From assembly GCA_038884755.1 (NCBI GenBank), contig JAWABJ010000001.1, positions 251,378-315,377 on the forward strand: 64,000 nt of DNA. Reading direction: 5' to 3'. Origin of the DNA: Candidatus Norongarragalinales archaeon (lineage in GTDB: Archaea > Micrarchaeota > Micrarchaeia > Norongarragalinales > Norongarragalinaceae). Each line of letters begins with the position of its first letter. Position 1 is the stretch's first letter. The position numbers were made by a program, and so were the translations under genes. Shown here piece by piece: positions 20,714 to 33,141 of the stretch. The notes under the pieces were generated by a model. That model was given only the letters and a program-made list of their open reading frames with translations. It made no database searches and was not told where the DNA came from.

Positions 20714-20787
20714 AGTCAGAAGCTACCTCGGTCATCACAAGTCAGACTGGGACGGTGTCATCACGAAATAGGATTTGTGCAAAGCGC

Positions 20788-20796
20788 TTTTATTAA
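20788..20796 (+). promoter_or_regulatory. candidate TATA box (TTTTATTAA) for the RelA/SpoT-like gene
   Basis: About 35 nt upstream of the ATG at 20829, which supports that start over the track start at 20775. Confidence 0.35.
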
Positions 20797-20828: not shown

Positions 20829-22376
20829 ATGGAAGAAGCTGCTGTTTCGAAAAGGTTTTCACAGAAGTTCGGCGCGCAAATTAGCTTTGCTAGAACGCTT
20901 TATGCCGGCCTCAAAGGAGAAAAGAATTTTGATTTCAACCTTGCCCTTGCGAATTACTTGCATTCCCACCAAGCGGACGATCAGCTTGTTTTAAGCGCTT
21001 TACTAGCCGGTCTGAGTAAAAAAGAGCTGGAGGAAATCAAAAAAAAAGGTGTGGCCAAGCACGTGTTGGAGCAGCACGAGAAAGAATGGGGTTTGGACAG
21101 GAAAGCAGTTAAAGATTTCAGTGAAAACTTGAAAGAGGCTTTAGAGATTATTGCAAGCTATATACAGTTGAAAGCAAATCCGGAAATGGATGCAAACGCG
21201 CATTTTGCAGCCGCGCTTGAAGCCCCCAAGCTACGCGCTTCGTTGTTGCGCGCTGCGGTATTGAACTTCGAACTGGAAAAACCATCAAAACAATCTGCTT
21301 TGCACGTGGAAGTGGCTGAACACGTTTACATTCCGTGGTTGAACCTCTTGGGTTTGGTTGACATGAGCAACGAACTCGGAGAAAAAGTTTTGAAAATCAA
21401 AGACCCTTTAGCATACGAAAAACTCTTTCAACACTTGGAAACAATGCCTGTCAGTAAACGTCCGTTCGGCAAAATGATTGCCTCCTTGAAAAAGAAAATC
21501 AGTAGGCTGGGGTTGGAGATTGAAGACGTTCAGTTCAGGAGAAAATCGATTTACAGCATTTACCAAAAACTCAAGGCTTACGGCTGTCCCGTTGGAAATC
21601 CAGCCTACGACCACGACCCTCGACTTTTAGACGATTTGTATGGGTTGAGGGTTGTTTTGAAGGCTGACGAGACTGAAAGCGAAAGCGAACAAGTTGCAAA
21701 GGCAAGACGAGTGTTGGATGTAGTACGCTCTTCATTCGAAATGCCTAAGGAGGCAAGGATAGACGAGTATGTCGCTGAAAAAGCAAAACCAAGCGGCTAT
21801 AAGGCTATTCACACGCCGGTTATTGGACCGCAGAATTTGCCGATAGAAATTCAAACAGTAACCAAACCATGGCACGCTGCGAACGAAGCTGGTCTTTCTT
21901 CCCATTTTTTCTACAAACTTTCTAAAGCTGTTAGCAGTCCTTTGAGGCAGGTGTTGGTTCGCATTCAAGAAGAGTTGAAGCGGGGCGTGCCGATAGAACG
22001 AGTTTTCAGGAGCATAGGCAAGCCGTTGATTTACGTGACAACCGACCGGTTTGGTCCGCAAGACCACGCTCTTCCTGCAGGTTCTACTCCCTTGGACTTG
22101 TGGTACGCGCATGGTTTCCGCAAGAAGTACGAAGAAAAAATGAAGGGAAAAATATTTTTCGAAACCGTAATGGTAAACGGTGAAACCGTTCCACTAACTA
22201 CTATCCTGAAGCCAGGCGATCACGTGCGTTTTGACGTGAGCGGAAGCCCGCCGAAAGTAGAGCTTATTGACCGGTTTGCGAACGAAGTAGCAACGCCTGA
22301 AGCGAGGGAAGGGTTGTGGAAGTTGAGGAGAAAACTGGGAAAATGGCGTTGGCTCAGGCGAAAGGAAGAGAGCTAA
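20829..22376 (+). CDS. RelA/SpoT homolog (RSH): degenerate HD domain, (p)ppGpp-synthetase domain and TGS domain
   Basis: Synthetase motifs RRKSIYSIYQKL, DDLYGLRVVL, SGYKAIHT, IEIQTVT and HFFYK. TGS-like region IYVTTDRFG...ALPAGSTPLDLWYA...VNGETVPLTTILKPGDHVRF. The N-terminal HD-domain remnant has LLAGL where the HD dyad is expected. Confidence 0.8.
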   Translation: MEEAAVSKRFSQKFGAQISFARTLYAGLKGEKNFDFNLALANYLHSHQADDQLVLSALLAGLSKKELEEIKKKGVAKHVLEQHEKEWGLDRKAVKDFSENLKEALEIIASYIQLKANPEMDANAHFAAALEAPKLRASLLRAAVLNFELEKPSKQSALHVEVAEHVYIPWLNLLGLVDMSNELGEKVLKIKDPLAYEKLFQHLETMPVSKRPFGKMIASLKKKISRLGLEIEDVQFRRKSIYSIYQKLKAYGCPVGNPAYDHDPRLLDDLYGLRVVLKADETESESEQVAKARRVLDVVRSSFEMPKEARIDEYVAEKAKPSGYKAIHTPVIGPQNLPIEIQTVTKPWHAANEAGLSSHFFYKLSKAVSSPLRQVLVRIQEELKRGVPIERVFRSIGKPLIYVTTDRFGPQDHALPAGSTPLDLWYAHGFRKKYEEKMKGKIFFETVMVNGETVPLTTILKPGDHVRFDVSGSPPKVELIDRFANEVATPEAREGLWKLRRKLGKWRWLRRKEES

Positions 22377-22436: not shown

Positions 22437-23006
22437 TTGCAAAAAGGTGGTTTGTTGGCTTTAGCGTGGATTTTGGTCGGAATAATCGCGATAATCCTGG
22501 TTTTCGTCGTTTTGCTTTACAACGGGCTTGTCCGTGCGAGGAACATGGTGGACAACGCGTGGTCGCAAATCGACGTGCAACTGAAGAAAAGAAGCGACTT
22601 GATTCCCAACCTCGTCGAGACAGTGAAAGGCTACGCCAAGCACGAGCGCGAAGCGTTCAAGGAAGTTACCGAAGCGAGAACGAAGTTTTTGAATGCGAAA
22701 ACAATCGGAGAGAAAGCGAGGGCGAGCAACATGATTACCGACGCTTTGAAAAGCATTTTTGCTGTCGCAGAAGCCTATCCGCAATTGCGCGCGAGCGAAA
22801 ACTTCAAGCACTTGCAGGAAGAGTTGAGCGACATCGAGGGGAAAATAGCTTACGCCAGGCAATTCTACAACGACTCCGTTCTCGAGTACAACAATTCCAT
22901 CCAAGTGTTCCCCAACAGTCTTGTGGCTGGACCGTTCGGCTTTTCCAAGCGCGAGTTTTTCGAAGTCAGCGTGGAAGAGCGCAAGAGCGTCAAGGTAAAA
23001 TTTTGA
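22437..23006 (+). CDS. lemA: LemA family protein
   Basis: 189 aa with an N-terminal TM, then LYNGLVRARNMVDNAWSQIDVQLKKRSDLIPNLVETVKGYAKHE, the typical LemA signature. Confidence 0.88.
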   Translation: MQKGGLLALAWILVGIIAIILVFVVLLYNGLVRARNMVDNAWSQIDVQLKKRSDLIPNLVETVKGYAKHEREAFKEVTEARTKFLNAKTIGEKARASNMITDALKSIFAVAEAYPQLRASENFKHLQEELSDIEGKIAYARQFYNDSVLEYNNSIQVFPNSLVAGPFGFSKREFFEVSVEERKSVKVKF

Positions 23007-23071: not shown

Positions 23072-23956
23072 ATGCCTGAGCTTTACAACCAGATTGCCGA
23101 CAACAAGCGCAAGTCTTGGCTTTTCGTGGTGTTCTTGTTCGTTCTCGTGGCGCTGGCGGTGCTGTTTTTCTCGCTCATCACGGGTTTCGGCAAAGCCGGC
23201 TTCATAATCGCGTTTTTCATCGCTTTGCTTACGACCGTCGGCTCTTACTACTGGAGTGATTCCATCGTCATAGCTTCGACTGGCGCAAAGCCCGCGGAGG
23301 GTGTGGCGTTCCGCAAATACCATTCTCTTGTGGAAGGGTTGTGCATCGCAAGCGGGCTACCCAAGCCCAGGCTTTACTATCTTGAAGATAACGCGATTAA
23401 TGCGTTTGCGACAGGGCGCGATCCCAAGCACGCGGTTGTTTGCGTTACCACTGGTGCAATGCAAAAGCTCGACAAGAGCGAGTTGGAAGGCGTGATAGCG
23501 CACGAGCTTTCGCACGTCAAGAACTATGACGTGCGCTTCATCACTTTCGCAGTCGTGATGGTCGGGTTGGTGAGCATTCTTGCCGACATGGCTTTCAGGA
23601 CCATGTTTTACGGAAGGGGGGACAGGAAGATTGAAGGGAGAGCGGGCGCGGCTTTGCTAGTAATAGGGCTGTTGTTCATGATTCTCGCACCTATTTTCGC
23701 GAAGCTAGTGCAACTCGCGGTTTCGAGAAAGCGCGAGTATCTTGCTGATGCTACCGGCGCTTCGCTCACGCGTTATCCTGAAGGGCTTGCCAAAGCTTTA
23801 GAGAAAATAAAGGCGGAGGCGCAGCCGGTGAAAAACGCCAACTCGGCCACTGCCAGCTTGTTTTTCGCAAACCCCCTGAAAGGCGTTTCCCTCTCCGGGC
23901 TGTTCGCCACGCACCCTCCGGTGGAAGAACGCATAAAGCGCTTGCGGAGTATGTAA
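23072..23956 (+). CDS. htpX: HtpX-like M48 zinc metalloprotease
   Basis: 294 aa, HEXXH (HELSHV), four TM segments, and the typical lemA-htpX pairing. Confidence 0.88.
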   Translation: MPELYNQIADNKRKSWLFVVFLFVLVALAVLFFSLITGFGKAGFIIAFFIALLTTVGSYYWSDSIVIASTGAKPAEGVAFRKYHSLVEGLCIASGLPKPRLYYLEDNAINAFATGRDPKHAVVCVTTGAMQKLDKSELEGVIAHELSHVKNYDVRFITFAVVMVGLVSILADMAFRTMFYGRGDRKIEGRAGAALLVIGLLFMILAPIFAKLVQLAVSRKREYLADATGASLTRYPEGLAKALEKIKAEAQPVKNANSATASLFFANPLKGVSLSGLFATHPPVEERIKRLRSM

Positions 23957-32145: not shown

Positions 32146-33141
32146 GTGGTTTTTTTGAAGGAAATAGGCGATTTGCAGCATCCAGTCAAAGCTTGGACTG
32201 CTTTAACCAGGGTTATAGCACACTTGGGGGAAATTCCACAAGAGGATTACTTGCGTAGAAACTATCCCGTCTTGGCTGAAGCGGTTGATTACCACGGCGG
32301 TTTGCATTCTTTGGTCGAAGCAAACAAGCAAGATCTTTCAATTCTTTTGCAAAACGCCTCCGAGCGGCACGAAACTTCCTTGTTGCATTGGAGTCGTGCG
32401 ATGGACGGTAACGAGCACGCGCGGGAAAAGTTAGTTGGTCTTTACAAGCGGCAGGCGGAAAGACTGGCATCAAAGCTTTATTCTCACAAGCTCCGAGGGA
32501 CTTGGAAGGATTGGGTTAGAGTGGACGTTGAAGACTTGGTTCAAGAAGGGCTAGTTTCCCTTGTGCAAGCCCTTCCCCGATACGATCCTTCAAAATCCAA
32601 GTTTCCTAAGTTTGCCCACTTGGTGATGGAGGGCGCTATGAAGCACTACTTGCGCGATAAAGCGCAAGTAATCCGCAAGCCGGCATGGGTTCAAGAGCTT
32701 AGGTCTAAAATGTCCAAGGCTTTCTTCGACTACCAGTCTAGGCACGGCATGAAGCCTACTTTTGAGCAACTGGCAAAACAAGCGAACGTTCCCGTGGAGC
32801 ACGTGATAGAAGCTTTCACTCACTACCAGCCCGTTTCCTTGCAAGCGGCTTTAGATTTTGAAGGCACGGGAAAGGAAGGACGGTTTTTTCAGGAGCCGGC
32901 GGCCCGGGACGAGTTGGAGCCGCTTGCTTTGAAAATGATTTTCTACAAGGCTTTGCGTGACCACGTGAAACTGTCGAAAATGCAGGCTGTGGCGTTAGGC
33001 ATGTCTGCAGATGGGCATTCTCTCGAGGAGATTGCAACGCACTTAGGAGTTTCACCCGACTCTGCAGGGCAGTTGGTTTACCAGGCGAAAAAGAAAATAA
33101 GGGAAAACCTGCTGTTCAAGCGCGAGCTTGGTATAAACTGA
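32146..33141 (+). CDS. sigma-70 family RNA polymerase sigma factor homolog
   Basis: Region 1.2/2: GNEHAREKLVGLYKRQAERLASKL...VEDLVQEGLVSLVQALPRYDPSKSKFPKFAHLVMEGAMKHYLRD..IRKP. Region 3: KPTFEQLAKQANVPVEHV. Region 4 HTH: LSKMQAVALGMSADGHSLEEIATHLGVSPDSAGQLVYQAKKKIRENL. Confidence 0.75.
   Translation: MVFLKEIGDLQHPVKAWTALTRVIAHLGEIPQEDYLRRNYPVLAEAVDYHGGLHSLVEANKQDLSILLQNASERHETSLLHWSRAMDGNEHAREKLVGLYKRQAERLASKLYSHKLRGTWKDWVRVDVEDLVQEGLVSLVQALPRYDPSKSKFPKFAHLVMEGAMKHYLRDKAQVIRKPAWVQELRSKMSKAFFDYQSRHGMKPTFEQLAKQANVPVEHVIEAFTHYQPVSLQAALDFEGTGKEGRFFQEPAARDELEPLALKMIFYKALRDHVKLSKMQAVALGMSADGHSLEEIATHLGVSPDSAGQLVYQAKKKIRENLLFKRELGIN

Follow-up and report, generated by a model that had tools for sequence, protein, structure and literature searches.

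Introduction

Can an archaeon encode its own enzymes for making and degrading a stringent-response alarmone and, if it can, how are the two activities divided between its proteins? The question is raised by a gene for a RelA/SpoT homolog (RSH) found at positions 20829-22376 (+ strand) of a 64,000-nucleotide stretch of the genome of a Candidatus Norongarragalinales archaeon (assembly GCA_038884755.1, contig JAWABJ010000001.1; this whole stretch is called here the window). Its product, P0001, has 515 amino acids (aa) and consists of a predicted pseudo-hydrolase domain of HD type, a synthetase domain (SYNTH) that looks catalytically competent, a TGS-like domain and a basic tail; a second gene of the same genome encodes P0394, a predicted stand-alone hydrolase. 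We consider it probable that P0001 is a highly diverged, C-terminally truncated derivative of the long RSHs and takes part in a split synthetase/hydrolase alarmone cycle.

To our knowledge, a stringent-response-like signal has never been measured in archaea. A defined gene pair, made of a synthetase with a dead hydrolase domain and a live-looking hydrolase, gives a way of asking whether an alarmone is both made and broken down in an archaeon. No long RSH was present among the archaea of the 2011 RSH census (PMC3153485), and later surveys go no further than listing RelA/SpoT annotations for some DPANN phyla: Li et al. (2021) recorded such genes in Diapherotrites, Woesearchaeota, Pacearchaeota and Nanoarchaeota, as bacterial acquisitions, with Micrarchaeota not listed and with no domain or active-site analysis (PMC8407392).

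Results

The open reading frame (ORF) of P0001 is intact and runs on the + strand from an ATG at 20829, over 515 codons, to a stop codon at 22374-22376. This start is backed by the agreement of ortholog N-termini, since two positional orthologs share a P0001-like beginning, M-P/E-E-...-S-K/A-R/E-F. The Pfam model RelA_SpoT (PF04607) matched aa 237-365 with 62.9 bits (E 4e-17; cut-off 27), and a profile scan of the genome gave 65.8 bits for the same gene, which is the sole SYNTH gene of this 93%-complete assembly. The NCBIfam model TIGR00691 aligned aa 154-503, through the TGS domain, with profile positions 129-452 at 93.1 bits, below its trusted cut-off of 499.2, and the score for NF008124 (GTP diphosphokinase, RelA subgroup) was also below the cut-off (72 versus 728 bits). 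A phmmer search of PDB sequences returned E. coli RelA as the top match (E 2e-17, RelA residues 163-465). When a profile of the three-member subfamily to which P0001 belongs was compared by hhalign with a profile of 12 bacterial long RSHs, aa 12-507 aligned with template positions 20-478 (probability 100%, E 4.8e-40). This comparison and a MAFFT alignment of 65 RSH sequences agree that P0001 matches long RSHs collinearly from the HD domain, over the linking helices, SYNTH and TGS, to the first helix that follows TGS.

The Pfam models HD_4 and TGS gave no match to P0001 at E < 1, and the HD-like and TGS assignments therefore rest on profile alignments and fold. An AlphaFold2 model built on the alignment (predicted local distance difference test, pLDDT, 82; predicted template modelling score, pTM, 0.76) had as its first Foldseek matches in the PDB B. 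subtilis Rel (6yxa), ribosome-bound E. coli RelA (5iqr) and SpoT. The two N-terminal domains resemble those of S. aureus Rel (template modelling score, TM, 0.77), and structures of small alarmone synthetases (SAS) match the SYNTH part only. A search of PHROGs returned nothing informative for the RSH protein. By domain homology and fold, P0001 is confirmed as a member of the RSH superfamily. It is long-RSH-like in having an HD-type domain N-terminal to SYNTH and a TGS domain after it, and it departs from long RSHs in lacking their C-terminal helical, zinc-finger (CC) and ACT/RRM domains.

SYNTH, the nucleotide pyrophosphokinase domain, was delimited by Pfam, HMMER and the multiple alignment to aa 231-370 (21519-21938, + strand) and is the best-conserved domain between orthologs, with 67% identity. 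P0001 keeps R237, K239, S243, K247, D269, R274, K320, Y324 and H328, and further along E340, Q342, H349, E353, G355, H359, Y362 and K363; K239, K247, D269, R274, Y324, E340 and Y362 are invariant among the 65 aligned RSHs. The domain contains the motifs RRKSIYSIYQKL (aa 237-248), DDLYGLRVVL (aa 268-277), GYKAIHT (aa 323-329), IEIQTVT (aa 339-345) and HFFYK (aa 359-363). In the Rel_Seq enzyme, Mg is bound by the catalytic acids D264 and E323, the adenine of ATP is sandwiched between R241 and R269, guanine stacking is the part of Y308, and N306 belongs to the guanine-binding loop (PMC7983052). MAFFT, HMMER and hhalign place these residues at D269, E340, R237, R274, Y324 and S322 of P0001, respectively. 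D269 is also the counterpart of D275 of E. coli RelA, whose D275G variant serves as an inactive control (PMC8252717). At the RXKD/EXDD site, a motif with a role in specificity (PMC3153485), P0001 has R-I-D-E. On these alignments, which underlie all our statements about active sites, the SYNTH domain of P0001 looks catalytically competent; its acceptor preference cannot be read from the sequence.

The N-terminal half has a different fate. A helical, HD-like domain at aa 1-150 (20829-21278, +) is supported by the multiple alignment, hhalign and fold, and is followed at aa 151-230 (21279-21518, +; beginning AEHVYIPWLNLLGL) by the C-terminal HD helices and the central helix bundle that links to SYNTH, which is where the HMMER matches to TIGR00691 and RelA begin. 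In the hhalign comparison aa 12-230 are aligned to the HD region. Both alignments replace H53 of Rel_Seq by F36, the dyad H77-D78 by A60-G61 (within LLAGL, aa 58-62), D144 by V144 and N148 by E148, and neither offers an acidic pair for E81-D82; an insertion of about 20 aa follows the former HD motif. The domain is accordingly predicted to be a pseudo-hydrolase, with none of its catalytic residues left. This rules out a bifunctional SpoT-type enzyme, since neither the multiple alignment nor hhalign shows the first His, the dyad, the Glu/Asp pair, the second Asp or the Asn as kept.

Downstream of SYNTH, a divergent TGS-like beta-grasp with an inserted helix occupies aa 399-472 (22023-22244, +), aligned with RelA residues 404-465 and with the TGS columns of bacterial sequences. 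Foldseek matched it to the TGS structures 7doj and 3hvz at TM 0.72-0.75, with weak E-values of 0.03-0.06. Then come, at aa 473-515 (22245-22373, +), one or two helices equivalent to the beginning of the helical domain of long RSHs and a basic tail, as delimited by alignment, model and isoelectric point (pI); the protein has a pI of 10.5 and ends in a basic helix about 40 residues past TGS. Counterparts of the zinc-finger and ACT/RRM domains are absent, and the aligned bacterial sequences run 200-250 aa further.

These results bear on an initial annotation of this DNA, which was made from the sequence alone and described P0001 as an archaeal RSH whose synthetase core is conserved, whose hydrolase domain is degenerate and which has a TGS domain. 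That description is upheld: the RelA_SpoT score is 62.9 bits and every motif quoted is present, the profile-profile alignment puts A60-G61 at the dyad with the other hydrolase residues lost too, and the TGS-like stretch that was quoted (aa 414-468) is supported by profile alignment and fold, with Pfam TGS itself silent. Its view that the synthetase residues are well preserved stands for the two catalytic acids, the Arg pair and the Tyr; three usually conserved positions deviate (F236, S322 and V344). The label of a RelA-like, synthesis-only long RSH proved half right: the hydrolase appears dead and the synthetase live, but the protein is truncated after TGS, and membership of the RelA clade is rejected, as R-I-D-E is not EXDD and P0001 falls outside the bacterial clade that holds E. 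coli RelA.

One further RSH-type gene is present in the genome, outside the window (contig C1:98299-99444, +; loci L091/L131), and encodes P0394, of 382 aa. HD_4 matches P0394 with 43.7 bits, and both halves of its HD domain match the hydrolase domains of Rel and SpoT. Across the nine members of its family R50, G53, H59, H83-D84, E87, K184, D187 and N191 are invariant, among them, by alignment, the residues R, H, HD, E, D and N that make up RSH hydrolase sites. In its structural model (pLDDT 81, pTM 0.83) the first ~235 residues match SpoT/Rel HD domains and Mesh1 and other small alarmone hydrolases (SAH) at TM 0.75; it also has an insertion of ~60 aa and a C-terminal alpha/beta domain of ~140 aa without any match. 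From its residues, P0394 is predicted to be an RSH-type HD hydrolase that stands alone and keeps every catalytic residue. P0394 is a candidate for an alarmone hydrolase encoded apart from the synthetase, which the initial annotation had suggested looking for, and the genome has five Nudix genes besides. That annotation had noticed neither this gene nor how extremely fast the RSH diverges.

The gene for P0394 follows that for PCNA in a core cluster with primase, GINS, L44e, S27e and aIF2-alpha, and its ortholog is placed likewise. P0394 is also fast-evolving, with 37-42% identity to its nearest relatives, and the four samples with P0002, the closest ortholog of P0001, also contain an ortholog of P0394 (39% identity). 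Homologs of P0394 were found in 49 of 301 genomes of the phylum. Leaving out four genomes in which the hydrolase match lay inside the same ORF as a long RSH, a SYNTH gene is present in 28 of 45 hydrolase-positive genomes and in 53 of the 252 others (odds ratio 6.2, Fisher p 8e-8, without correction for phylogeny).

The host is a tiny archaeal symbiont and belongs to the Micrarchaeota (DPANN). The window encodes MCM, RIO1 kinase, an archaeal-type TIM, a presenilin-type SPP and an A-type ATPase operon, and the best named relatives of its MCM, at 50-75% identity, are all Candidatus Micrarchaeota/Micrarchaeia. The assembly has 0.93 Mb in 9 contigs and is 93% complete. Bacterial contamination is rejected by the 714-kb archaeal contig on which the RSH gene lies, by synteny in four archaeal lineages and by a contamination estimate of 0.3%.

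The RSH genes of four lineages are positional orthologs, because they are bracketed by a conserved small RNA (sRNA) candidate on one side and a conserved block of lemA and htpX on the other. The order RSH-lemA-htpX is common to the window, L007/L008, L145 and the same-genus genome G004. At the loci of P0002 (L007) and P0125 (L145) the order shared with the window extends over RSH, lemA, htpX (M48), a K channel, pfkB and an amino-acid permease. G004 has its RSH at the same place (L126, G004:C7, 3309-4913), with an H-D dyad kept. In another genome of the genus, G003, an integrase (tyrosine recombinase) stands upstream of lemA and no RSH is present at this locus (L143, G003:C74, 3894-5204), and two more genomes of the genus yielded no RSH. 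A DNA polymerase B gene stands at the site upstream of lemA in a different genus of the same family. The site behaves as a variable spot beside a conserved block.

A search of 5.8 billion clustered proteins found P0002 (515 aa, 57% identity) as the sole close relative of P0001. In a HMMER scan of 1.84 billion representatives only P0002 and P0125 (526 aa) reached E <= 1e-30, the remaining matches, at 99 bits or less, resembling ordinary long RSHs, and a locus search with the three-sequence subfamily alignment retrieved only ordinary bacterial Rel genes. The divergence of the RSH exceeds that of its neighbours at each locus compared with the window: 57% identity versus 69-89% at L007, 32% versus 62-77% at L145 and 22% versus 68-79% in G004. 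The ORFs are intact across the lineages (515, 515, 526 and 534 aa). The ratio of non-synonymous to synonymous divergence (dN/dS) is ~0.11 overall and ~0.06 in SYNTH, a rough sign of purifying selection and only a rough guide, because dS is saturated everywhere.

The GC content at third codon positions (GC3) of the window RSH is 0.49, versus 0.55-0.69 for its neighbours, and the copies at L007 and in G004 have GC3 values normal for their loci. GC3 is on the low side in the sigma-70 gene (0.55) and in an AEP primase-like gene (0.56) as well. The grouping of the G004 copy with the window subfamily was not rejected by an approximately unbiased (AU) test (p 0.62), so that hyper-divergence in place is sufficient to explain this copy, though alleles may also have been exchanged. 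Non-orthologous replacement at the locus may have occurred but is unneeded: the G004 copy is flanked by the same sRNA candidate and lemA.

In the phylum, RelA_SpoT-domain genes are present in 85 of 301 sampled genomes and 39 of 129 genera, in frames mostly of 350-690 aa, and most of these RSHs have a degenerate HD motif (HG, NG, YG, KN) with the synthetase core kept. The initial annotation had called stringent-response enzymes rare in archaea, which is not so in this phylum, and other DPANN phyla had already been reported to have them (PMC8407392). In our trees P0001, P0002, P0125, P0140 and a clearly degenerate protein of G036 (RelA_SpoT only 17 bits, no TGS) form a well-supported group, which lies outside a clade of all included bacterial sequences, E. 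coli RelA and SpoT among them. The donor and the number of acquisitions cannot be named, since the branches are long and the backbone is unresolved. One family (f23; G108, G147, G207 and G304, loci L097-L100) has near-canonical RSHs of 650 aa with RelA_SpoT scores of ~138 bits and an intact HD motif. These nest among bacterial Rel, together with the near-canonical Nanoarchaeia protein P0078 (630-650 aa for the whole set), and this placement points to separate, more recent transfers from bacteria. In other Micrarchaeota families a divergent RSH adjoins the phosphoenolpyruvate synthase gene ppsA (loci L003, L005 and L127, in G059, G033 and G007).

The window also contains a gene for a sigma-70 homolog (32146-33141, +), 9.8 kb from the RSH, and the initial annotation had paired the two as pillars of bacterial global regulation. 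This pairing did not hold up. The sigma gene is not in the same conserved block: the genes read on L007, where the order no longer agrees with the window past the H+-PPase gene, do not include it, and a functional link between the two was rejected. Of the 301 genomes of the phylum, 36 have a Sigma70_r2 homolog; a RelA_SpoT gene is present in 20 of these 36 versus 65 of the 265 others, a modest co-occurrence (Fisher p 3e-4, not corrected for phylogeny) that could simply come from lineages with many bacterial genes.

Directly upstream of the RSH gene, on the opposite strand, lies the sRNA candidate (20714-20768, - strand), a 55-nt C/D-box element recognized by sequence reading and conservation. 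Its C, D', C' and D boxes are perfect and follow the order GUGAUGA, 12-nt guide, CUGA, CUUG, UGAUGA, 12-nt guide, CUGA. It is near-identical in the window, L007, G004 and L145, although the flanking proteins are only 22-89% identical across these four lineages. Rfam gave no match above threshold, and all 17 weak matches were to C/D-box families on the minus strand; no complementary target of the guides was found in the assembly, rRNA genes not being checked. Direct reading of the sequence suggests a putative TATA box, TTTTATTAA, at 20788-20796 (+), ~37 nt upstream of the ATG, and its surroundings, gcttttattaagattg, are identical in the ortholog locus L007. Downstream, lemA (22437-23006, +) and the htpX/M48 peptidase gene (23072-23956, +) were identified by Pfam and are given as context, with no functional link shown.

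Discussion

We propose that the HD-type domain of P0001 is kept as a structural pseudo-hydrolase, and that SYNTH most likely moves the beta,gamma-pyrophosphate of ATP to the 3'-OH of a purine nucleotide. The acceptor would most probably be GDP or GTP, with (p)ppGpp as the product. The TGS-like domain and the basic tail would probably confer an RNA-dependent control, by tRNA or by the ribosome, without the zinc-finger and ACT/RRM anchors used by bacterial RelA. P0394 would degrade the product in trans, if both proteins act on the same molecule, and the pair would make up an alarmone cycle split into synthetase and hydrolase.

Several observations weigh against this proposal. P0001 deviates at three positions conserved to at least 90% in RSHs, namely F236, S322 and V344. 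F236 replaces the Gly before R-x-K, which is G251 of E. coli RelA, where the change G251E inactivates the enzyme; S322 replaces the Asn of the guanine loop (N306) and V344 the Arg of EIQIRT. Variation reaches other positions in the orthologs: Q342 is His in P0002 and P0125, and the G004 ortholog has Asp at the catalytic Glu. Bacterial RelA/Rel are reported to require a TGS His to sense deacylated tRNA; this His varies between the orthologs, and the ribosome-anchoring domains are absent. The dN of the RSH is 1.5-5 times that of its flanks, which is also compatible with relaxed constraint, and the association of hydrolase and SYNTH genes carries the lack of phylogenetic correction given above.

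Alternatively, P0001 could be active on another acceptor, making (p)ppApp or pyrophosphorylating the 3' CCA end of tRNA like toxSAS/CapRel, with a possible role in conflicts with viruses or hosts and not in housekeeping signalling of starvation. All three members of the subfamily have Ser in place of the base-contacting Asn of the G-loop, the Arg of EIQIRT is lost and the specificity motif R-I-D-E is a hybrid, but the guanine-stacking Tyr is kept (Y324). The TGS domain and basic tail would suit the binding of tRNA, and some SAHs are reported to reverse tRNA pyrophosphorylation (10.1101/2021.04.30.441581). Fast and uneven divergence (57, 32 and 22% between flanks at 62-89%), the integrase at the same site in G003 and a weak PADLOC match (24 bits) to the candidate defence family PDC-S33 would fit a conflict role. 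Against a role in defence, the similarity to long RSHs (93 bits for TIGR00691, hhalign E 5e-40) far exceeds that to defence SAS models (24 bits), the adjacent genes are the housekeeping-type lemA and htpX with no antitoxin-like small gene among them, and the partner hydrolase sits in a core replication/translation cluster and not in an island. The narrower possibility of a single-domain SAS or toxSAS was rejected, the protein being multi-domain, with no antitoxin neighbour and only the 24-bit PADLOC match. We regard another acceptor as unlikely, and keep the synthesis of a (p)ppGpp-type alarmone as the preferred reading of P0001.

The same deviations could also mark a dead or decaying relic, that is, a pseudoenzyme with a structural or RNA-binding role or a gene in the course of being lost. 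The RSH is the fastest-evolving protein of its block, F236, S322 and V344 deviate, Q342 and even the catalytic Glu are not constant among the orthologs, the related G036 protein is clearly degenerate, the gene is absent at the G003 locus and was likewise not found in two more genomes of that genus, and the GC3 of the window copy is atypically low (0.49). Decay would sit poorly, however, with the retention of both metal-binding acids, both Arg and the Tyr in P0001, P0002 and P0125, with SYNTH being the best-conserved domain (67% identity, dN/dS ~0.06), with ORFs of 515, 515, 526 and 534 aa kept intact across lineages in which dS is saturated, and with the co-distribution with an intact hydrolase family; we judge it improbable. 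That P0001 is a bifunctional SpoT/Rel-type enzyme with a misaligned HD motif, or comes from a bacterial contaminant, is scarcely credible given the exclusions reported above, even if the ortholog from the same genus in G004 still has H-D at the dyad and the closest relatives outside the subfamily are bacterial. A split cycle with P0001 as its synthetase thus remains our favoured, and only probable, explanation.

What is new here is the positional orthology combined with fast divergence, the separate, seemingly intact hydrolase that is co-distributed with the synthetases, and the spread of RSH genes to 85 of 301 genomes. More tentatively, and with considerable doubt, we suggest that Micrarchaeota may run a self-contained alarmone circuit, made of a truncated [hS]-TGS synthetase and an HD hydrolase with a new C-terminal domain, both fast-evolving and both derived from a bacterial long RSH. 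If this were true, it would be the first concrete, testable (p)ppGpp-type enzyme pair in Archaea, operating without a bacterial RNA polymerase target. The fast evolution of the circuit may then reflect a readout of nutrient supply or tRNA charging in an obligate symbiont, or may instead reflect targeting in conflicts with viruses or hosts. RSH identities of 22-57% between flanks at 62-89% make one ask what causes turnover of this kind in symbionts with reduced genomes.

Among known systems, the bacterial long RSH Rel (B. subtilis 6yxa and the N-terminal regions of S. aureus and S. equisimilis Rel) is the best structural match to P0001, with the same order of HD-type domain, helix bundle, SYNTH, TGS and helical start and the same synthetase catalytic residues; P0001 differs from it in lacking the hydrolase residues, the zinc finger and the ACT/RRM domain, in its identity of only ~20-30% and in its archaeal host. 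E. coli RelA ([hS]) likewise has an inactive hydrolase scaffold before an active-looking synthetase, followed by TGS, but P0001 is 230 aa shorter, has R-I-D-E, lacks the ribosome-docking domains and belongs to another clade. The loss of the hydrolase in P0001 is independent of that in RelA, and P0001 offers an independent case of the RelA-style solution in which a dead hydrolase serves as scaffold. The RelA/SpoT genes of DPANN described by Li et al. (2021) are RSHs of inferred bacterial origin (PMC8407392), and the window subfamily is far more diverged. Short HD-SYNTH-TGS RSHs of ~460-510 aa among our database matches (P0150, P0200, P0249) end at the same point as P0001, after TGS and the first helix, but differ in having HD...ED intact and canonical synthetase motifs and in grouping with bacterial Rel. 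With toxSAS/CapRel, P0001 has the RSH synthetase fold in common, and its fast evolution and variable locus would fit a conflict role, yet it keeps a long-RSH architecture, has no antitoxin neighbour and matches a candidate defence family with 24 bits only. Finally, pairs of RelQ or RelP with SAH/Mesh1 also split synthesis and hydrolysis between two genes; compared with these, P0001 is multi-domain, with its pseudo-HD and TGS domains, and P0394 carries an insertion of ~60 aa and an extra C-terminal domain.

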